Part shown: positions 1 through 55,244 of the stretch, piece by piece
Layout of the letters: each line of letters begins with the position of its first letter
Position numbering within the stretch: position 1 is the first letter of the stretch
NCBI GenBank assembly: GCA_023444045.1
Contig: JAEZRQ010000006.1
Coordinates: 241,786-305,785 of the forward strand
Direction: 5' to 3'
Source of the DNA: Candidatus Parcubacteria bacterium
GTDB taxonomy: Bacteria > Patescibacteriota > Patescibacteriia > Patescibacteriales > UBA12465
Length of the DNA: 64,000 bases
Position numbers and translations under genes: made by a program
The notes under the pieces: model-generated
Databases searched by the model: none
What the model saw: the letters and a program-made list of their open reading frames with translations, nothing else
What the model was told of the DNA's origin: nothing

Positions 1-156
1 CGAAAAGGGAAGAAGGTTTTTCTGTCAGCCCCCATTCATCATCACTTTCAGGCGATTGGTTGGCCAGAGAGTAAGATTGTAATGCGTTTTTGGGTGGTTT
101 CCGGAGTCATGGCAGTAATTGGCTTAATGATTTTTTTATTAGATAAGAATTTTTAA
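1..156 (+). CDS. mraY: MraY (phospho-N-acetylmuramoyl-pentapeptide transferase), C-terminal fragment; 5' end lies outside the window
   Basis: Frame 1 is open from the window edge: ...[47 protein letters not shown], stop TAA 154-156. It resembles the conserved MraY C-terminus. Followed by ftsW-murG-murC. Confidence 0.8.
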
Positions 157-159
157 AAA

Positions 160-1305
160 ATGTTTTTTTCTCAAACAATCAAAAAAATATTAACTCCAAA
201 AAAAGGAGAGCATGAAGCGGATAAGAGTTTAATCTTTAGTATTGGGATTGTTCTTGTTTTTGGTTTGGTGATGTTATCTAGCGCCTCTTCGGTTGTTTCT
301 TATGCTAAGTTCGGTAATATTTATAATTATTTTTCCCGTCAGCTGGTGGCAGTAGTTATTAGCTTGGTGGCGATGTTTATTGTCTCTAAGATTGATTATC
401 ATATTTGGCGTAAATATGCTGGCGGTGCTTTAATTATTTCTATTATTTTATTGTTACTGGTTTTTATTCCTGGGATTAGGGCAGATTTTGGTACTTCCCG
501 TAGTTGGATTAGTATTTTTGGCTATTCCTTCCAACCATCAGAATTAGTAAAAATAACCTTTTTAATTTATCTGGCCACTTGGTTGGAGGCTAAAAAAGAG
601 CAGCTAAAAAGTTTCTCTATGGGGGTCTTTCCTTTTTTAGTCACTTTGGCAGTCATTTCTGGCTTAATGCTTCTACAGCCAGATTTAGGAACCCTGTTAA
701 TTATCATTGCTGCAGCGATGGCGGTTTTCTTTGTTGGTGGCGGAAACTTTAAACATATTATTATTTTAGGCGTGCTTGGTGTTTTGGCTCTATTTCTGAT
801 GGTTTCCCTTAGTTCTTCTTATCAAATGGATCGTTTAAAATGTTATCAAAATCCTGGATATGATACGCAAGATGAATGTTATCAAATCAACCAGTCTTTA
901 ATTGCCGTTGGCTCTGGCGGACTATTTGGTCGTGGTTTGGGCCAAAGTCGTCAGAAGTTTATGTATTTACCGGAAGTATGGGGCGACTCCATTTTCCCAA
1001 TTATTGCTGAAGAGGTCGGTTTTGTTTTTAGTTCAGCTATTTTATTAGTTTTCTTATTTTTATTTTATAGAATTTTAATGGTGGCTAAGAATGCGCCCGA
1101 TCAATATGGTATGGCTCTGGCAGTTGGTGTGGCTGCCTGGTTGGCGGTGCAATCATTTTTAAATATTGGTGGGCAGATGAACTTAATTCCGATGACCGGT
1201 GTGCCTTTGCCATTTATTTCTGCTGGCGGGTCTTCGGTGCTGTCATCCTTAATTGCCTTAGGAATTGTTATTAATATCAGTAAACAGACTAGAGGAGCTA
1301 AATAA
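160..1305 (+). CDS. ftsW: SEDS-family peptidoglycan glycosyltransferase FtsW/RodA
   Basis: 381 aa polytopic membrane protein with SEDS-like strings FQPSELVKI, GLGQSRQKFMYLPEVWGDSIF and PMTGVPLPFISAGGSS. Sits between mraY and murG. Confidence 0.9.
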   Translation: MFFSQTIKKILTPKKGEHEADKSLIFSIGIVLVFGLVMLSSASSVVSYAKFGNIYNYFSRQLVAVVISLVAMFIVSKIDYHIWRKYAGGALIISIILLLLVFIPGIRADFGTSRSWISIFGYSFQPSELVKITFLIYLATWLEAKKEQLKSFSMGVFPFLVTLAVISGLMLLQPDLGTLLIIIAAAMAVFFVGGGNFKHIIILGVLGVLALFLMVSLSSSYQMDRLKCYQNPGYDTQDECYQINQSLIAVGSGGLFGRGLGQSRQKFMYLPEVWGDSIFPIIAEEVGFVFSSAILLVFLFLFYRILMVAKNAPDQYGMALAVGVAAWLAVQSFLNIGGQMNLIPMTGVPLPFISAGGSSVLSSLIALGIVINISKQTRGAK

Positions 1306-1306
1306 T

Positions 1307-2386
1307 ATGTTGGATAAAAAGATAAAAATTATTCTTTCTGGCGGTGGAACTGGAGGGTCGGTGACTCCTTTATTAGCAGTGGCTCAAGAGTTCTATCTAG
1401 AACACCCAGAAACAAATTTTGTTTTTTTAGGCACTCACTTTGGTCCAGAGAGTAAATTAGTTTCTGAAGTCAGTTCAAAAATTCCTGTTGAGTTTAAGGC
1501 AATGCTGTCTGGAAAGTTGCGCCGTTATTTTTCCTTGAAAAATTTTTCTGACATTTTTAATATTGGTGGCGCTTTCTTTCAGTCAATCTATTTACTTAAA
1601 AAAGAAAAACCTAATTTAGTTATTTCTGCCGGTGCTTTTGTCAGCGTTCCTTTAGTTTGGGCGGCTAAATTATTAAAAATTCCTGTTTTAATTCACCAAC
1701 AAGATTTGCGTCCCGGACTGGCCAATCGTCTAATGGCAGGAGCGGCCAGTAAAATCACCGTTACTTTTACTGAATCTAAAAAAGCTTACGGCGAAAAAGC
1801 GATTGTAGTTGGTAACCCTTATTTTTTGCCAACACTAAATAATAGAGAAATAGTTTTAAGGGACTTAGGATTTAATAATCTAAAACCTTTGATATTAATT
1901 TATGGTGGCGGTACGGGGGCGGTCGCGCTTAATGAGGCGGTTGTTAATAATTTGGATTCTTTACTTAAGATCGCTCAAGTGGTGCATCTAACTGGAACTG
2001 GCAAGAAGACTCAAGACTCTAGCGATGGTTATTATGCCGCTGAATTTTTAGATCATCAAAAATTATTATCAGTGATGGCTATTAGTGATTTAGTGATTGC
2101 CCGTCCAGGACTAGGAACACTAACTGAACTAGCAGCTTTAAAAAAGGCTAGTATTTTGGTGCCAATGCCTGAGAGTCATCAAGAGGATAATGTTTTAGCA
2201 GCTTTTGAGTTGGGGGCAACGATTTATCTAAAACAAAATGAATTAGATACAAGCTTAGCTCAGAGAGTAAAAGAGGTAGTAAGTGATGAAAAATTAAGAA
2301 ATGATTTGGCGGCTAAGATGGCAGAATTTATTAAACCAGGAGCAGCTAAGGAAATTGTTAGTTTATGTGACTCTTTAATTAAATAG
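1307..2386 (+). CDS. murG: MurG, UDP-GlcNAc:lipid I GlcNAc transferase
   Basis: N-terminal glycine loop SGGGTGGSVTPLLAVA and dcw context. Start moved to ATG 1307 (MLDKKIKIIL), just after the ftsW stop and preceded by AGAGGAG. The track ORF starts at 1265. Confidence 0.85.
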   Translation: MLDKKIKIILSGGGTGGSVTPLLAVAQEFYLEHPETNFVFLGTHFGPESKLVSEVSSKIPVEFKAMLSGKLRRYFSLKNFSDIFNIGGAFFQSIYLLKKEKPNLVISAGAFVSVPLVWAAKLLKIPVLIHQQDLRPGLANRLMAGAASKITVTFTESKKAYGEKAIVVGNPYFLPTLNNREIVLRDLGFNNLKPLILIYGGGTGAVALNEAVVNNLDSLLKIAQVVHLTGTGKKTQDSSDGYYAAEFLDHQKLLSVMAISDLVIARPGLGTLTELAALKKASILVPMPESHQEDNVLAAFELGATIYLKQNELDTSLAQRVKEVVSDEKLRNDLAAKMAEFIKPGAAKEIVSLCDSLIK

Positions 2387-3818: not shown

Positions 3819-4457
3819 ATGAAGAAAACAATTAAGCTATTTTTAGCTGTTAGTGTTACACTGTCGTTTGCGGCCTGTTCCTCTAAAACGAACGAAGGAA
3901 CGTATAATCCAAGTAACGAAATTAATCAGGCCTTAGTTGAGGAGAGCATTTCAACTACTAACACCCTTGGAGAAAATTCTTTAGTGGTGGAGGCCGAAGC
4001 AGAAACTCCAGCCATTACTCAAAGTGAATTTAAGATTTATTCCAATCAGGAATTAGGGTTTTCTTTTAAGTATCCCAAGACTTGGCCAGAACCATCACTT
4101 ATAACAGATGGTAATATGAGTGGTGGTATTTTTGAGGAAGAAGGTCAGTGGCAAATAGGATTAGGGGAGTTGCACAAAGCTTCTTTAGAGGGAGCAGATA
4201 AATACTTTGCTACTATTAGTGGTTTTTATCTACAAAGCAAAGCTGATATGATTAAAAAAATAAAATCAGATGAAATAAACAAATTTGTTAAATTAATTAA
4301 AGAAACTGATTCTTATATTGTTTATAGTGAGGTTGGTATGGTTGGTGTAAAAAACATTATGATTTTTAATGGAGATAAGGCTGTTAGAATTAACAGTTTA
4401 GAGGGGACTATGGATTCAGAAATTGACTCAATTGCTGAGAGTTTAATCTTTAACTAG
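3819..4457 (+). CDS. Hypothetical lipoprotein
   Basis: 212 aa. N-terminus MKKTIKLFLAVSVTLSFAACSS looks like a signal peptide with a lipobox-like FAAC. No family recognised. Confidence 0.6.
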   Translation: MKKTIKLFLAVSVTLSFAACSSKTNEGTYNPSNEINQALVEESISTTNTLGENSLVVEAEAETPAITQSEFKIYSNQELGFSFKYPKTWPEPSLITDGNMSGGIFEEEGQWQIGLGELHKASLEGADKYFATISGFYLQSKADMIKKIKSDEINKFVKLIKETDSYIVYSEVGMVGVKNIMIFNGDKAVRINSLEGTMDSEIDSIAESLIFN

Positions 4458-4476
4458 CCCCTCTCTTGTCTCTATA

Positions 4477-4506
4477 AAAAAGCACAGCCTTGGTTGTGCT
4501 TTTTTG
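4477..4506 (+). terminator. Rho-independent terminator after the lipoprotein gene
   Basis: AAAAGCACA-gccttggt-TGTGCTTTTTT hairpin plus T-run, read directly. Confidence 0.7.
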
Positions 4507-4540
4507 ACATTTAGCCTTATTCTTGCTTTAATTTCTATAT

Positions 4541-5842
4541 ATGAAAGCTAAAATTGCTACAAAAACCTTACCTGGTTTTAATGAATATCTACCAAAAGAT
4601 CAACTCGCTTTTAATAAGATGAGGGATTTAATTGTGTCTGTTTACGAATCTTTTGGCTTTTTGCCAATAGATACTCCAGTTTTAGAAAGACAAGAGGTAT
4701 TACTGGCTAAAGCCGGCGGCGAGACCGAAAAGCAGATTTATTGCTTAGAAAAAGGCGACGAGAAGTTGGCCTTACGTTTTGATTTAACCGTTCCTTTTGC
4801 TCGTTACGTCAGTGAGCATTTTGCTAATCTAGTCTTTCCTTTTAGAAGATATCAAATTGCTAAAGTCTATCGCGGCGAAAGACCACAAAGAGGGCGTTTT
4901 AGGGAATTTTATCAGGCAGATATTGATATTGTTTCTGAGGGTGAGTTATCTTTACTAGCTGATGCTGAAGTTATTAAAGTAATTAACGAGGTATTTATTA
5001 AGTTAGAGGTTGGAGCTTTTAAGATTCGTTTAAATAATCGTAAATTACTGAGCGGATTTTTAGAAAGCCTTAATTTACAGGACAAAAGCAGTGAAATTTT
5101 AATTTTAATTGACAAGTTAGATAAGGTCGGCAGCGATAAGACTCGGGCTGCTTTAGAAGAAATTACCTCCAGAGAAAAAGCTAACGATATCATGCAATTT
5201 ATTGCTATTGGCGATGATGTGTTAAATAAATTAGCGGCTTTAAAAATAAATAATGAAACTTTCAAGGCTGGTTTAGCTGAATTGACAGAACTATTAGGTT
5301 ATCTAAAAGACTTTGCTGTTTCTGAAGAAAATTATCAAATTGATTTAACTATTGCTCGCGGTTTAGATTATTACACTGGCATGGTTTGCGAAACAACTTT
5401 AGCTGATTTTCCGCAAATTGGTTCAGTTTGTTCAGGTGGCCGCTATAATAACTTAACAGCTAATTATAGTGATAAAAAATTACCGGGAGTTGGCGTTTCT
5501 ATTGGTTTGTCTCGCCTGTTTTATCAATTAAAAGAAGCTGGTTTAATAAAAGACAGTCAAGAAAATAAGGCTGATATTTTACTAATTAGCGAGAATTTAA
5601 CGACAGCCGCTAAATTAGCTGATGATTTAAGAGTGAACGGCTTATCAGTAATTGGTGTTTATGGTGATGATAAATTCAAGAAGAAGTTGAGTTTTGCCAA
5701 TCGCTTAGGCGTTAAGTGGGTTTTGATTTTAGGAGAAGATGAAATTAGCGGGGCCTATTTTTCACTAAAGGACATGCTAAGCGGTGAACAATTTAAATTA
5801 ACTGCGCTCGCCGAGATAATAGAAAAAATAAATAAAAGTTAA
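4541..5842 (+). CDS. hisS: Histidine--tRNA ligase
   Basis: 433 aa class II aaRS with RYQIAKVYRGERPQRGRFREFYQADIDI and CSGGRYNNL, both typical of HisRS. Confidence 0.9.
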   Translation: MKAKIATKTLPGFNEYLPKDQLAFNKMRDLIVSVYESFGFLPIDTPVLERQEVLLAKAGGETEKQIYCLEKGDEKLALRFDLTVPFARYVSEHFANLVFPFRRYQIAKVYRGERPQRGRFREFYQADIDIVSEGELSLLADAEVIKVINEVFIKLEVGAFKIRLNNRKLLSGFLESLNLQDKSSEILILIDKLDKVGSDKTRAALEEITSREKANDIMQFIAIGDDVLNKLAALKINNETFKAGLAELTELLGYLKDFAVSEENYQIDLTIARGLDYYTGMVCETTLADFPQIGSVCSGGRYNNLTANYSDKKLPGVGVSIGLSRLFYQLKEAGLIKDSQENKADILLISENLTTAAKLADDLRVNGLSVIGVYGDDKFKKKLSFANRLGVKWVLILGEDEISGAYFSLKDMLSGEQFKLTALAEIIEKINKS

Positions 5843-45814: not shown

Positions 45815-47617
45815 ATGAATCCATCAGATGAAATAAAACAGAAGCTGGATATTGTGGATTTTATCAGGGAGTATATTCCGGTCAAGGCCGTGGGGGCTAA
45901 CTTTCAAGCTCTCTGTCCTTTTCATGGGGAAAAAACTCCTTCTTTTGTGATTTCGCCGGAGAAACAAATTTGGCACTGTTTTGGTTGCGGCAAAGGCGGT
46001 GATGTTTTCTCTTTTTTAATGGAGATGGAAAGCCTGTCTTTTCCGGAAGCGGTGCGTCAATTAGCCCCTAAAGTAGGAGTGGTGTTAAAAAGTGATAACC
46101 CAGAACTGCGCAGTCGTCGTAACCGCGTACTTGATATTTTAGCTCTTAGTACCAAATATTATCATCACCTACTTAAAACCTCAGTTGGAGCGGAAGCCTT
46201 AGCCTATCTTAAAAAACGCGGTTTAACTGACGAAGTAATTAGTGAGTGGCAAATCGGTTATAGTCAGAACTCTTGGGATGGTTTATTAAAATTTTTAAGT
46301 GCCCGTCCACTGGAAGGTCAAAAATATTCTTGGGCGGAAATATTTGAAGCCGGTTTATCAGTTAAAAAAGAAGGTACAACGGGTCGCTATTATGATCGTT
46401 TCCGCGACCGGATTATGTTTCCGATTAATGATTTAAGCGGCAATCCAATTGCTTATTCCGCGAGAATTAATCCCGCTTCAGTTGATGATAAAACAGGGAA
46501 GTATATAAATAGCGCCCAAAACAGTGTCTATGACAAAAGCCGGGTGCTCTTTGCTTTAGACAAGGCGAAAAATTATATTAAGAGTGAAGATTTAGTGATT
46601 GTCGTTGAGGGGCAGATGGATGCTATTACTTGTCACCAGTTTGGTTTTAAAAATACGGTTGCTTCTTCGGGAACGGCACTAACCGCTGAGCAAGTAGCCC
46701 TGCTTAAAAGATATACTAATAATATTGCTTTGTGCTTTGATGCCGATGCGGCCGGACAATTAGCGGCTGACCGAGGAATTAAGGAGGCGATGGCGGCACA
46801 GATGGATATTAAGGTAATTATTATTCCTAGCGGCAAGGACCCCGATGAAGCTTTGCGCAGTGATCCTGATTCTTTTGCTCGGGCGGTTAAAGAAGCGAAG
46901 CCAATGATGGAATATTATTTTGAGAAAGTTTGCCAGGGTTTAGATTTAACAATTGTCAAAAACAAAAAAGAAGTGGCCGCGAAAATGCTCGCCATGATTG
47001 CTAAATTGGCCAATAAGATTGAGGCTAATCACTGGTTGAAAGTCTTAGCTCAAGCTTTGGAAATTGACGAGAATGTTTTGCGTGAAACTTTACCTCAAGA
47101 GAAAATTAGTAATTTAGTAAGTAATGTAAAGGAAGAGAATGAGGTGACGGTTCGCCCTAGAGAAGCCCAGCTTAGTGAACTACTTATCGCTATTATGCTG
47201 CGCTTTCCGGAACTAACTAACTTAATTAGTAATAAAATTGAGCTGGAGTGGTTAAGTGATGAGGATTTACGCTCGTTTTACAAAAACCTGATTATTTATT
47301 ATAATAAAAATGCGGCTTTAAACTACGAAGAATTTAAAGACTACTTACAACAGGAGGCACCTAACTCCTTAAGTATTTTAGACCGTTTGATCCTTCTGGG
47401 AGAGAAGGATTTTTATGCGTATGAGGCTAGTGACGTTCAAGCGGAAATAATTAAAACTATTACTGAGCTCAAGAAATATTTTATTCAAAAAAAGATTGCT
47501 CAGGCGCAACGGGAAATGGCAGTAGCGGAAAAAGCTGGTGATGAGGAAAAGATCAATGAAATTTTGTCACAACTTAAGGCGCTTAATGATAGTCAGCGCG
47601 ATAATCAAATAAGTTAA
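45815..47617 (+). CDS. dnaG: DNA primase
   Basis: Zinc finger [34 protein letters not shown] and TOPRIM VVEGQMD / FDADAAG. Confidence 0.95.
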
Positions 47618-47627
47618 TTCTTTAAAT

Positions 47628-49064
47628 ATGCCAAAAACCATCAAAAAAGCTCCGGCTAAGAAAATGGTTAAAAAAACTAAAGCAGTCGTCAAGAAAAAAG
47701 AAAACATTAAGAAAAAAACAGCCCCTAAAAAAATGCCCTCAAAAAAAACTAAATTAGTCAAAAAACCAGTTAAATTAAAGGCGCCTCTTAAAAAAGCGTC
47801 TCTTAAAGCTACCCCTAAAAAAATTACTAAGAAAGCCACTCCTAAAAAAGCGGTCAAGAAAGTAGTGGCAAAAAAAGTTGTTAAAAAAGTAGCCCCCAAG
47901 AAAGTCGTTAAAAAACCAGTAGCTAAAGTAAAGAAAGTTATCGCTAAACCAAAGGAAGTAAAAAAAGAATTACCGCCAAGAGAGATTATTTATCCCAGTG
48001 AGGATAAAATGAGAAAACTAATTGAGAAGGGGCGTATGCGTGGTTTTGTGACTGAAACTGAGTTGCTATATCTTTTTCCGGAAGTGGAGGAGTATGTTTA
48101 TGAGTATGATGTTTTTTTAGGAGATCTGCAGCGCAGTGGTATTAGAATTATAGAAGACTCTGGTCGGATTTTAGGAGCGGCGGAAAATCGTGAAGAGATT
48201 GATAAGCCCACTTCACTTAACTTTGATTTATCCAAATTATCAGCTGATTCAATTCAGATGTATCTGAAAGAAATTGGTAAAGTACCACTACTTAATTCAG
48301 CTGAGGAGGTGGAGCTCGCCAAACGAAAAGAAAAGGGGGATAAAGAGGCAGAAAAGAAGATTATTGAGGCTAACTTACGTTTAGTAGTTTCAATTGCCAA
48401 AAAATTTGCCGGAGCTAAGGGTTTGTCGCTACTTGACCTAATTCAGGAGGGCAATATCGGCCTATTTAGGGCCGTAGAGAAGTTTGAATACCGTAAAGGG
48501 TTTAAGTTCTCAACCTACGCCACTTGGTGGATTAGACAGGCAATTACCCGTGCTTTAGCTGATCAATCTCGCACTATCCGCATCCCAGTTCATATGGTGG
48601 AAACTATTAATAAGTTTCAACAGGTGCAGCGCTTTTTAGTCCAAGAATTAGGCCGTGAACCAATGGCCGAAGAAGCGGCCGCCGAAATGGGCGAAGATAT
48701 TGATAAGGTGAGATATATTATTAAGATTTCTCAGGATACTATTTCACTTCAAGCCGCTATCGGTGATGACGAAGAAGATTCTACTTTAGAGGACTTTATT
48801 GAAGATGTAAAAACGATGGCGCCAGATAGAGCCGCTGCCTTACAACTTCTTAAGGATTACGTTAAGGAGATTGTGGCTCAATTATCTCCTCGTGAGCAGA
48901 AGATTTTAGAAATGCGCTTTGGCTTAGTTGATGGCGTGGCTCATACTTTAGAAGAAGTGGGCCAAGAGTTTGAAGTTACTCGTGAGCGTATTCGCCAGAT
49001 TGAATCTAAGGCGCTAGAAAAAATTAGAAAGTTTAAAGGTTTAGAAAAACTAAGAGATTATTAA
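47628..49064 (+). CDS. rpoD: Primary sigma-70 factor RpoD with a ~110 aa Lys/Ala/Pro/Val-rich N-terminal repeat extension
   Basis: Regions 1.1 to 4 are recognisable: [49 protein letters not shown] and [20 protein letters not shown]. They are preceded by PKK/VKK repeats. Confidence 0.95.
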
Positions 49065-49075
49065 GAAAGTTTATA

Positions 49076-49099
49076 AAAACCCCTTTTTGTGGGGTTTTT
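49076..49099 (+). terminator. Rho-independent terminator after rpoD
   Basis: AAAACCCC-tttttgt-GGGGTTTTT. Confidence 0.8.
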
Positions 49100-49107
49100 G
49101 TTTATTA

Positions 49108-49135
49108 TTGACATAAGCTCTTTATTTGCTAAAAT
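49108..49135 (+). promoter_or_regulatory. Sigma-70-type promoter upstream of the tRNA gene
   Basis: TTGACA (49108-49113), 16 nt spacer, TAAAAT (49130-49135). Confidence 0.5.
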
Positions 49136-49224
49136 AGGTATGTAAAATGTTGATTCAACATTTTTGTTTTTTGAAGAAAAACTTAATAATTCCCGGGTAG
49201 CGCAGCGGTAGCGCAGTTGGCTGT

Positions 49225-49463
49225 GAACACGTAAAAGTTCTACGCAGCTTTCTCAAGTGATTGAGATTGAAAAACAAGGTGAATTGTCTGGAAGTCTAAG
49301 TCCGAAAGGATATGGTAATCAGCAGCCAAGCCCTGAAAGTTTCAGGGAAGGTTCAGAGACTATCCCGAAAGGGAGTAGGTCCATCCTAGGATGGCCCGAA
49401 GCGCCTTGCATCTCTCTGAGATGATGATATAGTCCACCCCTTTAGGAAACTATTGGATAAGTG
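49225..49463 (+). ncRNA. Group I self-splicing intron (no ORF), ~239 nt
   Basis: Core-like strings match remembered Tetrahymena/Azoarcus/Anabaena introns: GAUAUGGUAAUCAGCAGCCAAGCCC, GGAAGGUUCAGAGACUA and GAUAUAGUCC. GNRA-capped hairpins are UCUCAA-GUGA-UUGAGA, GUCC-GAAA-GGAU and UCCC-GAAA-GGGA. P1 pairs exon GGCUGU with GCAGCU (49244-49249), giving a U.G pair at the splice site. The intron ends in G (49463). Confidence 0.8.
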
Positions 49464-49479
49464 TAACCAATTGGTCGTC

Positions 49480-49495
49480 GGTTCGAATCCGACCC
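49480..49495 (+). repeat. Direct repeat copy 1 (inside the tRNA-Asn T-arm/acceptor 3' half)
   Basis: GGTTCGAATCCGACCC, identical to 49635-49650. Confidence 0.9.
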
Positions 49496-49562
49496 CGGGA
49501 GCCAACAACTTTTTTGTGCTGTGGACAGGCATATTTGCCCATAAAATAGCCAAAAATCAAAG

Positions 49563-49588
49563 AAACTCAGTTTATGCTGAGTTTTTTT
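49563..49588 (+). terminator. Rho-independent terminator downstream of the tRNA
   Basis: AAACTCAG-tttatg-CTGAGTTTTTTT. Confidence 0.7.
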
Positions 49589-49634
49589 GTTGCAGTCAAA
49601 CGAGTGAAAATAAGCGTAAATAAAGGAGATTTCT

Positions 49635-49650
49635 GGTTCGAATCCGACCC
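49635..49650 (+). repeat. Direct repeat copy 2: orphan tRNA 3' fragment (att-like remnant)
   Basis: GGTTCGAATCCGACCC with no upstream cloverleaf and no CCA. It lies 155 nt downstream of copy 1 and about 85 nt upstream of the R-M cassette. Confidence 0.8.
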
Positions 49651-49734
49651 ACGTCAAACAGTATTTTTAACTTTTAAATATAACAAAACTAAGCTACAAT
49701 AGAACTATATTAATAACGAAAATTCTGATTGCTT

Positions 49735-50571
49735 ATGTTGAAAAATATTTCTAAAAAAAGAGTCGAACCATTTTTGAAATGGGCTGGCGGTAAATCTCAA
49801 TTATTAGAACAATTTAAACCATTATTTCCAAAAGAAGGAACTTATAAAAGATATATTGAACCGTTTATTGGCGGAGGGGCAGTCTTTTTTTATTTAGAAC
49901 CGAAAGAGGCTATTATTTCTGATTTAAATAAAGACTTAATTGAGGCTTATAAGATTGTTAAAAGCCACCCAAAAGAGTTGATTGCCTTGTTAAAAAAATA
50001 CGAAAAAAAACATAGCAAAGAGTTTTATTTGAAAATCAGAGAAGAATATAATGCCAATAAATTAGATAAGATAAATAAGGCGGCTCATTTAATCTACTTA
50101 AATAAAACCTGTTTCAATGGTTTATATAGAGTTAATAGCAAGGGCGGATTTAATGTTCCTTTTGGACAACATAAGAAATTTTCAGTTAATGAAGAAGGAA
50201 TATTGTCAGCTAGTAAAATATTAAAAAAAACTAAAATAGAACACACCGATTTTACACAGGTTTTGAAAAATGCTAAAAAAGGAGACTTTGTTTACTTCGA
50301 TCCACCATACTATCCGTTAAATACTGGCTCAAATTTTACCACGTATACCAAGGAAAACTTTTTAGAAAAAGAACAGGAAAAACTCAAAAAAACTTTTAAG
50401 AAACTTGATGCTCGAGGGTGTATACTTATGTTAAGCAATTCAGATACTCCTTATATTAGAAAGCTATATAAAGAATGGAATATTACAAAAGTAAGTGCCA
50501 AGCGTTTCATTAATTGTATGGCGGAAAAAAGAGGTGATGTATCTGAGGTTGTGGTAAGAAACTATAAGTAA
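49735..50571 (+). CDS. Dam-family (alpha-class, D12) N6-adenine DNA methyltransferase, DpnM-like; probable GATC specificity
   Basis: N-terminal PFLKWAGGKSQLL, then PFIGGGAVFF (AdoMet motif) and FVYFDPPYYP (catalytic DPPY). Order and size match Dam/DpnM. ATG 49735 is preferred over the TTG at 49729. Confidence 0.85.
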   Translation: MLKNISKKRVEPFLKWAGGKSQLLEQFKPLFPKEGTYKRYIEPFIGGGAVFFYLEPKEAIISDLNKDLIEAYKIVKSHPKELIALLKKYEKKHSKEFYLKIREEYNANKLDKINKAAHLIYLNKTCFNGLYRVNSKGGFNVPFGQHKKFSVNEEGILSASKILKKTKIEHTDFTQVLKNAKKGDFVYFDPPYYPLNTGSNFTTYTKENFLEKEQEKLKKTFKKLDARGCILMLSNSDTPYIRKLYKEWNITKVSAKRFINCMAEKRGDVSEVVVRNYK

Positions 50572-50574
50572 GAT

Positions 50575-51354
50575 ATGTGTTTGTATAAAAAGCATAAAAA
50601 CTTTGCTCTTTATCACGGTGACTGTCTGGAAGAATTAAAAAGATTTCCAGAAAATTACTTTGATATGATCTTTGCTGACCCGCCATACTTTTTGTCGAGC
50701 GGTAGTTTTAGTTGCCAAAATGGAAAAATGGTTAGTGTCAAAAAGGGTGACTGGGATTTAAGCAAAGGATTTCAGGATGATTTTAATTTCCATTTAAATT
50801 GGATTAAAGAATGTCGCAGGGTGTTAAAACCTCATGGCACAATCTGGGTTAGCGGAACTTATCATTCTATATATCAGTGTGGTTTTATTTTACAAAACAC
50901 TAAATATCATATTTTAAATGACATTTCTTGGTTTAAACCAAATGCGGCTCCTAATCTAAGTTGTCGTTTTTTTACTGCTAGCCATGAGACTTTAATTTGG
51001 GCGAGAAAAGAAAAGAAAGCTAAGCACACTTTTAATTATCAAGACATTAAAAATGGTGATTGGTCTGAAGATGAATTTAAAAAACCATATTTACAAATGC
51101 GTTCCGTTTGGTCCATGGGCACACCGAAGAAAGAAGAGAAGCGATTCGGTAAACACCCAACTCAAAAACCTTTAGATTTATTAAAAAGAATAATACTAGC
51201 TAGCACTAAAGAAGGTGACATCGTTCTCGATCCTTTTACAGGCAGCTCAACTACTGGTGTGGCCGCTAATTTACATAAAAGAAAATTTGTTGGGATTGAT
51301 TCTGATAAAAATTATTTAGATCTTTCTTTGCAAAGATTAAATGCTCTAGTTTAA
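50575..51354 (+). CDS. Beta-class N6-adenine DNA methyltransferase, DpnA-like
   Basis: DMIFADPPYFLSSG...VSVKKGDWD, NAAPNLSCRFFTASHETLIWARK, GKHPTQKPLDLLKRIILASTKEGDIVLDPFTGSSTTGVAA. These are near-colinear with the S. pneumoniae DpnA sequence as I recall it. Confidence 0.85.
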   Translation: MCLYKKHKNFALYHGDCLEELKRFPENYFDMIFADPPYFLSSGSFSCQNGKMVSVKKGDWDLSKGFQDDFNFHLNWIKECRRVLKPHGTIWVSGTYHSIYQCGFILQNTKYHILNDISWFKPNAAPNLSCRFFTASHETLIWARKEKKAKHTFNYQDIKNGDWSEDEFKKPYLQMRSVWSMGTPKKEEKRFGKHPTQKPLDLLKRIILASTKEGDIVLDPFTGSSTTGVAANLHKRKFVGIDSDKNYLDLSLQRLNALV

Positions 51355-51359
51355 AACAT

Positions 51360-52124
51360 ATGGCTAAAAATGAATCCTGGGAACAAATATTTAAAGATTA
51401 TAAAATATTAAAACACGATTTTAATAAATCACCTTTTTGTTTATCAGCTGAACAAATAAAAGAGTCTTGTCAGAAATTTAAAAAAACTACAGAAAAAGAG
51501 GTGCGGATATTGTGTAAACAGGATAGCAGAAAGAGTCGTCCAGATATTTTTGTTTCAAATAATTTATTTATTTTACCAGTAAAAAATGGTTTTTATAACA
51601 TAATAAAAGGGGAGGGGTATGTTGATATACCAGAAATTACATCAGATATTAATGAGTACGAAACCCAATTAGATTTTTCTTTGGACTCGTCTGTAGTTGG
51701 AAATTCGGAAATGCAACATCTTGATTTTGCCTATGCATCTAGTTTAATCAGGACATTTATGGGTGATAAATCATTGGTACTGACAATAAGAGGAAGAAAA
51801 TTTACACCAGAATTCAATTTTTTTATTGGAAAGCAGAAAATAAATGTAAATAGCGTACAAACAGAAGTTGATGCTGGTTACGAAGGAAGAGAACAAATAG
51901 TTTTAATAGAGGCTAAAAATAAAAAGACAAAAGATACCGTTATACGTCAATTGTATTATCCATTTAGACAGTGGCAATCAATAACAAAGAAAAAAGTTTT
52001 AACTCTATTTTTCGAGAAAGATAAAAAAACTGGCATATATTCATTTTGGCAGTTTGGTTTTAGAAATGCAAAAGACTACAACAGTATAAAATTATTAAAA
52101 TCTGCTAGATATATAATCAAATAA
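51360..52124 (+). CDS. Uncharacterised protein with a PD-(D/E)XK-like motif, inserted between the DpnA-like and DpnII-like genes
   Basis: 254 aa. A candidate nuclease motif sits in VQTEVDAGYEGREQIVLIEAKNKK (D-x12-E-x-K). No resemblance to DpnI, DpnII or MutH by eye. Gaps of 5 nt on both sides. Confidence 0.5.
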   Translation: MAKNESWEQIFKDYKILKHDFNKSPFCLSAEQIKESCQKFKKTTEKEVRILCKQDSRKSRPDIFVSNNLFILPVKNGFYNIIKGEGYVDIPEITSDINEYETQLDFSLDSSVVGNSEMQHLDFAYASSLIRTFMGDKSLVLTIRGRKFTPEFNFFIGKQKINVNSVQTEVDAGYEGREQIVLIEAKNKKTKDTVIRQLYYPFRQWQSITKKKVLTLFFEKDKKTGIYSFWQFGFRNAKDYNSIKLLKSARYIIK

Positions 52125-52129
52125 GTTAT

Positions 52130-53047
52130 ATGAAGTTTATTAAATTCTATCAAGAAGTTTTAGGGTGTAAAAATGAAGATGAAGTCTTTACTTATTTTCT
52201 GAATAATTTAAAGCCAAGTAATATGCTTTGGTCTTATTTTGTTAATTGGGAAAAGGTATTTGAAAATACTAGTAAAATAGAATTAGCATTAAATAATTTA
52301 AATTATTTAATAGGCAAAGAAGATTTTGATAAAGCTTTTAGATTTTTAGTTAAAGAAAATCAAGAAATAATAAAAGTAATTCCTGCATTAGTCGTTCGTG
52401 ATGGAAAAAATAATACTAAGTTCAAGATTCTAGTTGATTATTCAAAGAAAAAATTGGTATATGAAGACTATGATTTTTCTAAAAAAGAAATAACCGATAA
52501 AGATATTGAAAACTATTTGTTGTTTGTAAAAGAAACAGGACTCAAAGATTTAATAGTTTCGCAAAGAATTAAAAACCTTGTTGATTACATGATTGGAGTT
52601 GAGGCTGGGTTGGATAGTAATGGGCGAAAAAATAGAGGAGGTCATTCAATGGAAGATATCGTCGGATTTTTTGTTGCAGACATTTGTAAAACCAAAAAAT
52701 TTAAATATCTAAAAGAGGCTACTGCTGAAAAAATAAAAGCCGAATGGGGCTATGACGTCCCAGTTGATAAATCTTCTCGTCGTTATGATTATGTTATTAA
52801 TACTGGCAAAGAGCTAATTATTTTTGAGACAAATTTTTATGGCGGTGGTGGCTCAAAATTAAAATCAACAGCAGGAGAATATAGAGATTTATTTAATGTT
52901 TTAAATGGACAATATAAGTTTATTTGGATTACTGACGGTAAAGGATGGGTCGGTACATCTAGACCATTAAGAGAAACTTTTAATCATAATGATTATATTT
53001 TTAGCTTAGGGATGATTGAGAAAGGGGTATTAAATTATATTATTTAA
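52130..53047 (+). CDS. DpnII/MboI-family type II restriction endonuclease (probable GATC)
   Basis: NLVDYMIGVEAGLDSNGRKNRGGHSMEDIV and LIIFETNFYGGGGSKLKSTAGEY...FIWITDGKGW parallel remembered R.DpnII strings (NLVDYVTGVEVGMDTNGRKNRTG; EVNFYSGSGSKLNE; WITDGQGW). Confidence 0.85.
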   Translation: MKFIKFYQEVLGCKNEDEVFTYFLNNLKPSNMLWSYFVNWEKVFENTSKIELALNNLNYLIGKEDFDKAFRFLVKENQEIIKVIPALVVRDGKNNTKFKILVDYSKKKLVYEDYDFSKKEITDKDIENYLLFVKETGLKDLIVSQRIKNLVDYMIGVEAGLDSNGRKNRGGHSMEDIVGFFVADICKTKKFKYLKEATAEKIKAEWGYDVPVDKSSRRYDYVINTGKELIIFETNFYGGGGSKLKSTAGEYRDLFNVLNGQYKFIWITDGKGWVGTSRPLRETFNHNDYIFSLGMIEKGVLNYII

Positions 53048-53050
53048 TTT

Positions 53051-53212
53051 ATGCCTCTCGAAATCGCTACCACTACGTTAGAGCGAGCTTCGCAGGTGTC
53101 TGGAATAGCCAGCGCATTTTTTGCCTTACTATCTTTGATCAGTTTAGGTTATGTAGTTAAATTTACGTATATTATTAAAAAAAATAATACGCAAAATATT
53201 AATAATTTTACA
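53051..53212 (+). pseudogene. 5' part (54 codons) of a small single-TM ORF interrupted by the IS element
   Basis: MPLEIATTTLERASQVSGIASAFFALLSLISLGYVVKFTYIIKKNNTQNINNFT. The track ORF 53051-53275 continues into the IS left end. The IS boundary falls exactly between codons. Confidence 0.5.
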
Positions 53213-53238
53213 TGGCATGACCCCCGAAATTCGGACAC
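53213..53238 (+). repeat. IS left inverted repeat
   Basis: TGGCATGACCCCCGAAATTCGGACAC. The first 12 nt are perfect with the reverse complement of the right end, and TTC.GACAC matches further in. Confidence 0.75.
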
Positions 53239-53310
53239 GATATTCCATATAAAGCGGTTAGGGATTAATATATAAGTAGAGATATTAATAAACTAATAAG
53301 ACCGCTAAAT

Positions 53311-53559
53311 ATGGCTAGAAAGATAAGCTAAGATATTAGGGATAAAATAGTCGATAAAATAAAAAATGACGGCATGTCCGCCATTAAAGCCGCTCAAGAA
53401 TTTGGGATCTCGACTAATACGATATATAACTGGCTGGGACGAGGAAAAATTGGCTCCGATACTCTGGAGATAGGCAAGCTCAAACGAGAAAACCAACAGC
53501 TAAAACTAATCATTGCCGAACTAATGCTCGATTCGAGTAAGGGGAAAAAAAATCGCTAA
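53311..53559 (+). pseudogene. IS3 OrfA (HTH) with an in-frame TAA at codon 7
   Basis: MARKIS*DIRDKIVDKIKNDGMSAIKAAQEFGISTNTIYNWL...LKRENQQLKLIIAEL. The TAA at 53329-53331 is in the same frame as track ORF 53374-53559. Confidence 0.8.
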
Positions 53560-54379
53560 GGCCAGAAAGTTAGCGGTTGCTAATAACGGGATGATTGATA
53601 AGAAAAAACTGGCCATTAAACTAGGCATAGCCAGATCAACTCTGTATTATCGGTCAAAGAAAAAAGCTAAGGATGATGAGATTAAAAAAGAGATTATTGA
53701 GGTAATGGAATCTAATCCCGCCTATGGTTATAGACGAGTGGCTATTGCTCTAGATATGAACGAGAAGCCGGTAGCGAGGATAATGAAAATTAATGAGCTA
53801 AAACCACGGCTATGTAGGCGTAAATGGCAAAAGAAGGGCGATATTGGCCTGCCGGTGGCTCAATATGTCAATGAGATTAAGAAAATTGAAATACTAGAAC
53901 CAAATACTGTCTGGATAGCTGATTTCACCTATATTAAATACCGGACATCCTGGCTCTATCTGGCGACAGTGATGGATAGTTACACCGGAGAAGTAATCGG
54001 CGCGGCGATATCAAACAGGCATAATAGATTTTTAGTTAAATCGGCTGCGCTTGATGCCATTAAAAAAAGAGGTCTCTTGCTTCAATACTTCCACAGCGAT
54101 CAGGGCTCTAAATACCAGAGCGAAGAGCATGCCGACTTTCTAGCTAGATTAGGGGTAGTGGTTTCCATGAGCCGGAAAGGCTCTCCTTGGGAAAACGGTG
54201 GTCAAGAGTCATTCTTCTCGCACTATAAACTGGAACTGGGAAATGTTAATAGATTTGAAAGCGAAGGAGAACTGATTGCTAATATTTATAATTAGATATA
54301 TTATTTTAATAACGTGAGAATCAAGACGAAACTCAGAATGGCTCCAGCTAAGTTTTACGAACTGACCGCCAAAGGTTGA
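53525..54379 (+). pseudogene. IS3 OrfB (DDE transposase) with an in-frame TAG
   Basis: DDE residues lie in WIADFTY, HSDQGSKY and WENGGQESFF. After the TAG at 54293-54295 the frame continues IYYFNNVRIKTKLRMAPAKFYELTAKG to TGA 54377-54379. OrfB is in the +1 frame relative to OrfA across an A8 run (53545-53552). Confidence 0.8.
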
Positions 54380-54394
54380 TTTATGTGGACATCT

Positions 54395-54420
54395 GTGTCT
54401 GAAGAAATGGGGTCATGCCA
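54395..54420 (-). repeat. IS right inverted repeat
   Basis: The reverse complement reads TGGCATGACCCCATTTCTTCAGACAC. Confidence 0.75.
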
Positions 54421-54486
54421 GAGATTATTAAAGAATTTAATATAAAGTTGGTAGAACCTGAAAAGAGGTTTTATAAATCTTATTAA
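54421..54486 (+). pseudogene. 3' part (21 codons plus stop) of the IS-interrupted small ORF
   Basis: EIIKEFNIKLVEPEKRFYKSY*, in phase with 53051-53212 once the 1208-bp IS is removed. Its stop lies 5 nt before the NERD gene ATG. Confidence 0.45.
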
Positions 54487-54491
54487 TTAAA

Positions 54492-55244
54492 ATGTTTAAA
54501 GAGCTTTTTAAATATGGATCCGGCCCAACTCAAGTAAAGAGAGAGTACAATAGAAGATATAATTTATATGTAACACCACTTTATCTTTTGATGTTTTTTA
54601 TTTTTTTAAGTTGCGCCTTAGCTCTTTATTCAATAGTGTTTAGCGACCACTATTACTTTATTATTATCTTTTTATTTATTTTAGGACTAACCTATATTTT
54701 TGTAAATTTTTTTGGCAGAAAAATATTAAAAAATGAATATAGTTATGGGATTGGAAATATGGCGGAAGAATCAACAGTGGCGAAGTTAACATTATTAGGT
54801 GATGAGTTTAAAGTTATAAATGACATTTCTAAAGGGGAAGATAAAGAGAATATTGATCATGTAGTTGTTGGTCCGACTGGGGTATTCGTAATTGAAACCA
54901 AAAGTAATATTAAAAGTAGTATTTTTTATTATAAAAATGGATTAAGAAAAACAAGTAATTTTGGTTATAAGGCAATAAAGCAAGTATCTAGAAATGCGGT
55001 TTGGATAGGTAAAAAAATTAATGAATATTTAAATACAGGTATTTGGGTTCAAGGATTAGTAGTAAGACCATTAAAAGAGAATAATGTGCTCCAATGTTAT
55101 TTTAATAATAAAGTTTGTGTTCTAAGTGGTGACGAAATCTTTAAATATATAAAAGACTATAAATATAAGTTAAGCGCGAGAGAAATTGGTGAGATTTATA
55201 CTTTATTAGTAAAAATAAAAAAAACATCTAATATAAAGATATAG
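54492..55244 (+). CDS. Membrane-anchored NERD (nuclease-related domain) protein
   Basis: Two N-terminal TM helices are followed by GNMAEESTVAKLTLLGDEFKVINDISKGEDKENIDHVVVGPTGVFVIETKS, the typical NERD pattern (IDH..v...G.f.IE.K). Confidence 0.75.
   Translation: MFKELFKYGSGPTQVKREYNRRYNLYVTPLYLLMFFIFLSCALALYSIVFSDHYYFIIIFLFILGLTYIFVNFFGRKILKNEYSYGIGNMAEESTVAKLTLLGDEFKVINDISKGEDKENIDHVVVGPTGVFVIETKSNIKSSIFYYKNGLRKTSNFGYKAIKQVSRNAVWIGKKINEYLNTGIWVQGLVVRPLKENNVLQCYFNNKVCVLSGDEIFKYIKDYKYKLSAREIGEIYTLLVKIKKTSNIKI

Follow-up and report, generated by a model that had tools for sequence, protein, structure and literature searches.

A Patescibacteria tRNA-Asn(GUU) gene interrupted between U35 and U36 by a group I intron of IA-type architecture

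Which tRNA does a gene encode when a standard finder passes over it in one mode and names it differently in another? The question is raised by a locus in a 64,000-nucleotide (nt) stretch of DNA from Candidatus Parcubacteria bacterium (assembly GCA_023444045.1, contig JAEZRQ010000006.1, positions 241,786 to 305,785), referred to below as the window. At 49191-49504 on its forward (+) strand, which also carries all parts of the gene described below, a tRNA gene is split by a 239-nt group I intron (49225-49463) without an open reading frame (ORF). ARAGORN in its default mode called no tRNA anywhere in the window, and with introns allowed it called the unspliced gene tRNA-Thr(tgt) i(33,239); the mis-call as tRNA-His foreseen in a preliminary description of this DNA, made from the letters alone, was not seen. 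When the exons are joined at 49224/49464 (a slash marks a junction throughout), as this description had proposed for a check with tRNAscan-SE, ARAGORN returns a 75-nt cloverleaf of tRNA-Asn(gtt). We conclude, with a probability of about 93%, that the gene encodes a tRNA-Asn(GUU) precursor of Patescibacteria (candidate phyla radiation, CPR), interrupted at U35/U36 by a group I intron of the IA type.

The group I identity, for which a comparison with the Rfam model RF00028 had been suggested, is indicated by a full-length match at 49215-49456 (model positions 1-253 of 253; 83.3 bits, E 1e-19, gathering score 50), and RF00028 is the sole Rfam family above threshold in the window. Exon 1 (49191-49224, 34 nt, tRNA-Asn positions 1-35) runs from UCCCGGG, the 5' strand of the acceptor stem, through the D arm and GUUGG, the 5' strand of the anticodon stem, to the loop bases C32 U33 G34 U35. 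In L126, L130, L135, L138 and others (L numbers designate the loci compared), uninterrupted tRNA-Asn genes match it with 100% identity. Exon 2 (49464-49504, 41 nt, positions 36-76) begins with U36 A37 A38 and continues through CCAAU, the 3' strand of the anticodon stem, the variable loop and the T arm to the acceptor 3' strand CCCGGGA, followed by G73 and an encoded CCA. Both exons are delimited by the joined-exon cloverleaf and by the uninterrupted genes, and the intron, which ends in omegaG49463, by RF00028, covariation and an empty site. The preliminary description had placed the two exons and the insert of about 239 nt exactly; its core strings were located at 49311-49332, 49350-49362 and 49426-49435, and its guide GCAGCU (49244-49249) and terminal G (49463) are both there. 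It was also right in calling the insert ORF-less: the window intron holds no endonuclease ORF, only short ORFs that cross the structured core, the longest on the sense strand (55 aa, GTG start) overlapping conserved core helices.

The pattern ATATAGTC-N(12-42)-GTAA-N13-GGTTCRANTCC was used to search a single genome of each GTDB species for homologues. This one restrictive pattern recovered at least 120 homologous loci in the species genomes, overwhelmingly metagenome-assembled genomes (MAGs) of Patescibacteria. Among the matches listed, 84 unique loci were mapped by script as ...CTGT/intron/TAA..., the introns measuring 185-345 nt or 511-630 nt. Fifty-four ORF-less homologous introns form the alignment A1, the source of the counts over 54 sequences and of the pairing percentages given below; its structure was derived by hand, starting from the Rfam alignment. 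The pattern imposes the P7 3' strand ATATAGTC, omegaG, the following TAA and the T-loop, and it leaves unconstrained the P7 5' strand, P1, the acceptor identity and all the covarying helices.

These homologues help to decide whether the product is tRNA-Asn or, as the intron-aware ARAGORN call has it, a tRNA-Thr(UGU) with the intron at 33/34. Splicing after U49222 and G49461 would produce the threonine loop CUUGUAA; U33 does precede the 33/34 site, and G49461 could act as omegaG, a G being found there in 66 of the 84 homologues. However, this base (intron position -3) is A or U in the other 18 loci. The pairs C32-G, U33-A, G34-C and U35.G are invariant in 54/54 sequences, that is, U33 pairs with the A of an invariant GCAG, and the wobble, U49224.G49244 in the window, sits at U35 instead, as the preliminary description had read it. 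Next to U35.G, the pair formed by intron position +1 and the base before GCAG covaries (GC 19, CG 18, AU 10, GU 2, UG 1, other 4), which therefore fixes the P1 register and the 5' splice site at U35. A best-helix heuristic applied to each candidate splice site discriminated only weakly, favouring Asn in 44 loci and Thr in 16 with a tie in 24, and was superseded by the alignment-based count.

The acceptor end agrees with this register. U1-A72 and G73 are features of tRNA-Asn, as in Escherichia coli and Bacillus subtilis; the window has them at U49191, A49500 and G49501, as noted in the preliminary description, and they recur in 83/84 (U1-A72) and 84/84 (G73) of the homologues. Among the fetched loci, true tRNA-Thr genes show G1-C72 and U73 instead, and they match the window tRNA at only 41-51 of 72 positions. 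Uninterrupted alleles read GGCTGTTAACC, whereas the threonine junction would need GGCTTGTAACC; for one homologue, the same mis-call as tRNA-Thr was analysed and refuted experimentally (PMC13011429). The P1 register, the variable base at -3, the acceptor and discriminator identity and the empty-site alleles together rule out tRNA-Thr(UGU), to which we attach next to no probability.

That the tRNA is tRNA-Asn, and that the insertion lies at 35/36, is seen directly in genes without the intron. Metagenome contigs were scanned for the spliced anticodon arm CAGTTGGCTGTTAACCAATTGGTC, which yielded at least 120 loci. Among the matches listed, ARAGORN made 112 tRNA-Asn calls across the 120 spliced-arm loci fetched, and in ten contigs there is an uninterrupted gene that agrees with the joined exons at 72/72 positions and is called tRNA-Asn in each case. 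One of the ten is the 130-kb contig L138, whose RpoD and DnaG are 93% and 68% identical to those of the window. It shares dnaG-rpoD and a small ORF upstream and a DpnII-type restriction-modification (R-M) cassette downstream (87-95% identity), and between them it keeps the promoter, the leader, both exons and the terminator, with a single clean gap that corresponds exactly to 49225-49463. The empty site reads GGCTGT/TAACC, and the insert ends at G49463. This syntenic and exact empty site is therefore a proof, at the DNA level and without experiment, of the 35/36 junction. The CUGU/UAA junction and the restored loop CUGUUAA proposed in the preliminary description are thus borne out by covariation and by the empty site, and the CUUGUAA junction, which it named as the outcome that would speak for tRNA-Thr(UGU), is contradicted by the uninterrupted alleles.

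Genes that do carry the intron add to this picture. The mature tRNA is identical at 72/72 positions in L030, L061, L041, L106 and L059, while their introns match that of the window at 80-84% of positions, and this combination of identical exons and diverged introns points to selection on the spliced product. Among the matches listed, the closest introns are those of L061 and L030 (about 84% of positions). L030 is annotated as Candidatus Falkowbacteria and L061 as a Patescibacteria group bacterium, and the RpoD of L061 is about 84% identical to that of the window; the closest loci are found in Patescibacteria MAGs, in agreement with a host from this group. The intron-plus and intron-minus pair of the window and L138 may reflect either a recent move of an endonuclease-less intron or its precise loss, and it would represent a natural system for studying intron turnover in CPR.

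The secondary structure of the intron is backed by covariation. On A1, the hand-derived fold pairs 89.4% of cells, as compared with 35-42% when the partners are slid by 1-3 columns; double-sided changes occur in 54 of the 75 pairs, and the covariation score of 0.480 (0.164 for shuffles) is reached by 0/500 shuffles. Compensatory changes are present in P3, P4, P5, P6, P6a and P8, and P7 is invariant, hence uninformative. The 54 homologues in this way support the consistent P3-P7 core fold that the preliminary description had presupposed. The minimum free energy fold of 49191-49504 (-106.9 kcal/mol, z = -3.74; 0/100 shuffles fold as well) recovers the acceptor, D and T arms together with P1, P2, P3, P5, P6a, P7.1, P7.2, P8 and P9.

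P1 is formed by GGCUGU (49219-49224) and the first intron base G49225 with CGCAGCU (49243-49249), as seen in the A1 counts; its outermost pairs (G30, G31) form in the window and are not conserved by the family. The loop L1 has a small AAC/GUU extension in the window (49226-49242), at the same place where relatives with introns of 510-630 nt carry an HNH-like ORF. P2 is a hairpin UCUCAA/UUGAGA with a GUGA loop (49251-49256 with 49261-49266), with compensatory changes in 6/6 pairs and 94.6% of cells paired. P3 (CAAGGUG, 49275-49281, with CGCCUUG, 49402-49408) encloses P4, P5, P6, P6a, the P7 5' strand, P7.1 and P7.2. P4 (49285-86 and 49288-91 with 49319-24) is paired in 98-99.5% of cells; P5 (49296-98 and 49300-03 with 49308-11 and 49313-15) is capped by a GAAA loop; P6 (49325-26 with 49351-52) is paired in 100% of cells and changes from C-G to G-C in 10 sequences; P6a (49331-37 with 49341-47) covaries in 7/7 pairs.

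The segment UCAGAGACUA at 49353-49362 comprises J6/7 and the P7 5' strand, and GAUAUAGUCC at 49426-49435 comprises J8/7 and the P7 3' strand: in P7, the partners of U49430-C49435 are G49356 and G49358-A49362, between which A49357 bulges out. The portion AGAGACUA of the 5' strand is invariant in 54/54 sequences. By analogy with G264-C311 of Tetrahymena, G49358-C49434 is the putative guanosine-binding pair. Between P7 and the P3 3' strand lie P7.1 (UCCC-GAAA-GGGA, 49363-66 with 49371-74), paired in 96.9% of cells where present, and P7.2 (49378-79 and 49381-85 with 49390-96), in which 7/7 pairs covary. The hairpin P8 (CAUCUC/GAGAUG, 49409-14 with 49418-23) covaries in 4/5 pairs, with 88.8% of cells paired, and P9 (CCuuUAG-GAAA-CUAuuGG, 49439-45 with 49450-56) in 5/7 pairs. 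After P9, a tail AUAAGUG leads up to omegaG49463, and the motif GGRUnAnGUG is recurrent here in homologues. The preliminary description had counted three GNRA-capped helices, and this number has to be raised to four (P2 with GUGA; P5, P7.1 and P9 with GAAA).

The family is not uniform in these peripheral helices. P7.1 and P7.2 are both missing from a sub-lineage of about 12/54 introns of A1. A second intron lineage, also without P7.1/P7.2, occupies the same 35/36 site of tRNA-Asn in L012, L018, L037, L044, L080, L081, L087, L109, L113 and L119; its P3, P4 and P6 sequences differ (e.g., GGGATAAC, TAATACCGTGGGAAC and GCGCCGTAGAGACTAGATACC), and its P6 shows a switch from C-G to G-C relative to the main lineage. 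In L076, a 546-nt intron holds a 102-aa HNH-like ORF (CxxC...HH...CxxCH) in the P1 loop, and the other strand carries a 282-aa ORF with a recombinase-like zinc-ribbon motif that ends inside the tRNA-Asn 3' end; the two ORF features are at 138-986 (+) and 1169-1477 (-). The arrangement of these ORFs suggests a mobile element that may have integrated at tRNA-Asn.

What kind of group I intron is this? The classical tRNA introns of subgroup IC3 are located in tRNA-Leu(UAA) at 34/35 (cyanobacteria and plastids), in tRNA-fMet at 33/34, and at 36/37 in tRNA-Arg(CCU) of Agrobacterium and tRNA-Ile(CAU) of Azoarcus. Like the window intron, they belong to a self-splicing class, interrupt the anticodon loop, form P1 from loop bases, are small and are mostly ORF-less. 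They differ from it in insertion position, tRNA and host phylum, and the window intron has, unlike them, P7.1/P7.2 and core strings of the GGUUCAGAGACUA / GAUAUAGUCC type. P7.1 and P7.2 between P7 and the P3 3' strand are the hallmark of subgroup IA; Michel and Westhof in 1990 reportedly described this arrangement for the subgroup, phage T4 td being an example. Since this hallmark is present in the window intron, membership in IC3 is ruled out, and the insertion at 35/36 speaks in the same direction. Introns of the T4 td type share with it the place of P7.1/P7.2 and have a similar P7 and J8/7 consensus; in contrast, they reside in protein-coding or rRNA genes and often carry endonuclease ORFs.

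The preliminary description, whose list of tRNA introns (Leu, fMet, Arg and Ile) represents pre-2020 knowledge, was not aware of an intron in tRNA-Asn or of the 35/36 site. The novelty so claimed is obsolete because Williams (bioRxiv 2020, 10.1101/2020.01.27.920355) had listed the class, and Nakagawa, Amikura, Omae and Suzuki (mSystems January 2026, PMC13011429; preprint July 2025, bioRxiv 10.1101/2025.07.03.662931) demonstrated splicing at 35/36. In Williams' work, 21 types of bacterial tRNA genes split by group I introns are distinguished computationally, from RF00028, exon mapping and a U(-1)/omegaG rule, and genes of the same kind as ours are covered; as cited by Nakagawa et al., that work contains an Asn.4Ug class and the ambiguity Asn.4Ug/Thr.2Ug. 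According to Nakagawa et al., tRNA-Asn and tRNA-Asp of Patescibacteria carry 35/36 group I introns of subgroup IA (25 of the 28 introns at this site were so classed); 15 split tRNA-Asn genes were found in 95 complete Patescibacteria genomes, four introns contain HNH endonucleases, and the mis-call as tRNA-Thr is described (PMC13011429). For GCA_016700035.1, they reported GTP-dependent splicing in vitro, a sequenced 35/36 junction and a block of the reaction by an omegaG-to-C change (PMC13011429).

The window gene shares with this class the host gene, the insertion site, the CUGU/...G/UAA junction, the IA-type architecture, the failure of the default finder and the ARAGORN mis-call as tRNA-Thr(UGU) at 33/34; the class is mostly ORF-less, as is the window intron, with some HNH-bearing relatives. 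The pre-tRNA-Asn of GCA_016700035.1 has the same junction as the window, GTTGGCTGT/...GTG/TAACCAATTG, and its tRNA is identical at 68/75 positions (91%), its intron at 64%. The window intron is 68% identical to that of GCA_016699245.1 (Paceibacteria) and, overall, 56-68% identical to six published members, with collinear core blocks. Nakagawa et al. studied complete genomes only, whereas the window is a metagenome contig, and its exact sequence was not found in the part of their supplementary tables compared. The gene is thus a further example of a known and experimentally validated class, for which the 35/36 site, the IA architecture, the annotation pitfall and self-splicing are all already published. 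New here are the syntenic and exact empty-site allele in a sister genome, the covariation-backed secondary structure of the intron family, and evidence that the class is far wider than the 15 genes of complete genomes, at least 120 species-level genomes being reached with one pattern.

By homology with these validated members, the window intron would be self-splicing. The two-step transesterification that uses guanosine and then omegaG is established group I chemistry, and applied to this locus it would proceed as follows. After the intron had folded into its P3-P9 catalytic core, the guide (C)GCAG(CU) would pair with C32-U35 as P1, so that U35.G marks the cleavage site. The first attack, after U49224, would come from an exogenous guanosine held in P7; omegaG49463 would then take the guanosine site, and the 3'-OH of U35 would attack after G49463, so that ...CUGU would be ligated to UAA... 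and the loop CUGUUAA restored. Judged by eye only, no convincing P10, in which UAA... would pair with nucleotides on the 5' side of the guide, is evident, and therefore the anticodon stem (27-31 with 39-43) probably holds and aligns the exons in place of a weak or absent P10.

Several points weigh against this account of a spliced tRNA-Asn(GUU) precursor. The locus is known from DNA alone, and splicing is assigned to it by homology; the validated intron comes from another class, Saccharimonadia, and appears by eye to have one hairpin where the window has P7.1 and P7.2. A convincing P10 is not visible by eye. In the homologues, the invariance of the P7 3' strand, omegaG, TAA and the T-loop carries no weight as independent evidence because these features were fixed by the search pattern. 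The split gene is only presumed to be the sole tRNA-Asn gene of the cell, the window covering 64 kb of a 542-kb contig.

Two other explanations were considered. The insertion might be decayed and dead for splicing, the locus being a tRNA pseudogene and a functional tRNA-Asn being encoded elsewhere; the lack of a homing endonuclease, the view limited to the DNA of the 64-kb window and the sister genome L138, which manages without the intron, would fit this. Against this, none of the core helices is disrupted, the intron retains P7 and J8/7 as well as the J4/5 adenines, the U.G wobble and omegaG, the exons are identical to functional-looking uninterrupted genes, and the predicted promoter and terminator are conserved. 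In relatives, the exons remain 100% identical while the introns diverge with compensatory changes, and in the published complete genomes of Patescibacteria the split gene is usually the only tRNA-Asn (PMC13011429). We therefore regard a pseudogene as very improbable. Even less probable, in our opinion, is that splicing depends on a protein cofactor or chaperone in vivo and does not proceed autonomously. Many group I introns do need protein cofactors in vivo, and here P1 is short (4-5 conserved pairs) and P10 is not evident; nevertheless, the window intron has stabilising GNRA tetraloops and the peripheral helices P7.1/P7.2, and for two homologous 35/36 introns, GTP and buffer were sufficient for self-splicing in vitro (PMC13011429).

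Should the cell have no tRNA-Asn gene besides the split one, the reading of every Asn codon would depend on a ribozyme reaction that requires guanosine and Mg2+. It is conceivable, although unlikely, that the intron serves as a regulatory checkpoint coupling translation capacity to the supply of guanine nucleotides, which would concern a nucleotide-scavenging symbiont with a reduced genome; Nakagawa et al. raise the related idea of control at the RNA level (PMC13011429). A more practical consequence concerns annotation. As default finders miss the gene and intron-aware ones name it tRNA-Thr(UGU), a genome bin would seem to be without tRNA-Asn, and this apparent loss distorts estimates of completeness and inferences about codon capacity.

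The window matches metagenome contigs of ENA and Logan, of which the longest has 542,604 bp. The gene lies downstream of dnaG (45815-47617) and rpoD (47628-49064), the latter with a terminator at 49073-49101, and the order dnaG, rpoD, split tRNA-Asn is common to seven related Patescibacteria loci. A putative sigma-70-type promoter TTGACA-16-TG-TAAAAT (49108-49135, +) matches the consensus at 11/12 positions, has an extended -10 TG and is kept in L138; it would leave a predicted leader of about 48 nt before tRNA position 1. The likely terminator is a hairpin AAACUCAG-UUUAUG-CUGAGUUU followed by a T-run (49563-49590, +; scored on the minus strand), which is also kept in L138. Both roles are assigned from sequence features. 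At its N-terminus, the RpoD of the window is extended by about 110 aa with an extremely high content of Lys, Ala and Pro, and the tblastn matches of relatives span only about 360-375 of its 478 residues.

Directly 3' of the tRNA, a variable block of lower GC content extends over 49729-55244. It begins with the R-M cassette, which consists of a D12 methyltransferase (MTase) gene (49729-50571), an N6_N4 MTase gene (50575-51354), a gene for a DUF6996/6997 protein (51360-52124) and a DpnII endonuclease gene (52130-53047), and it continues with genes for an IS3-type rve transposase (53591-54295) and a NERD nuclease (54492-55244). The cassette is common to the window and L138 and is missing from 12 other related loci. 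L138 has an extra 408-aa ORF (3926-5152, -) between the tRNA-fragment region described next and the cassette; the corresponding interval of the window measures only about 95 nt.

Positions 52-67 of the tRNA (GGTTCGAATCCGACCC) recur as an exact 16-nt direct copy at 49635-49650, 155 nt downstream of the original (49480-49495), past the terminator hairpin and shortly ahead of the R-M cassette. By chance, no such copy would be expected, and ARAGORN found no tRNA at this place. A diverged copy (GGTTCTAATTCGAGGTC) is present at the same place in L138, and the fragment therefore predates the split between the window and L138. It is a poor fit to the classical attachment (att) site of a genomic island: it lies between the tRNA and the cassette and stops 2 nt into the acceptor strand, and no integrase was found near it. 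The fragment may be what remains of an old recombination event at the border of the variable block.

Another recurrent element of about 110-200 nt, which we call unit 2, follows tRNA-Asn at a distance of about 50-220 nt in 11 of about 197 loci (L022, L033, L043, L049, L052, L055, L113, L118, L123, L164 and L236); the window is without it. Read from its 5' end, it consists of a copy of the tRNA acceptor 5' strand, a covarying hairpin of 8-10 bp and a T-stem-like segment with GGATTCGAA; the middle part of 55-135 nt has the shared motifs ACGAG...GGTGYHC, and the 3' part directly repeats the end of the tRNA between T-loop and G73, after which a second terminator follows. In each genome, the stems of unit 2 track the neighbouring tRNA-Asn, and two of its motifs co-occur 9 times in 112 intron-scan loci, with about 1.5 expected. 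Rfam matched no family to these elements, and no conserved neighbour gene or integrase was found beside them. Unit 2 might be a small RNA derived from the tRNA, or else a scar left by a miniature element that had inserted in the T-loop.

IMG/VR lists as viral ten contigs (L244-L253) that match the intron/exon-2 pattern; five of these could be mapped as split tRNA genes of the present type. One of the contigs, L251 (1217-1527), has a 239-nt intron very similar to that of the window, and L245 (3113-3420) comes from a 543-kb 'UViG'. Such matches are probably CPR DNA or proviral flanks rather than phage tRNAs. On L055, a Saccharibacteria contig, a LOOT RNA (RF03000, 80.4 bits; 682-797, -) is located about 450 nt downstream of the split tRNA-Asn.

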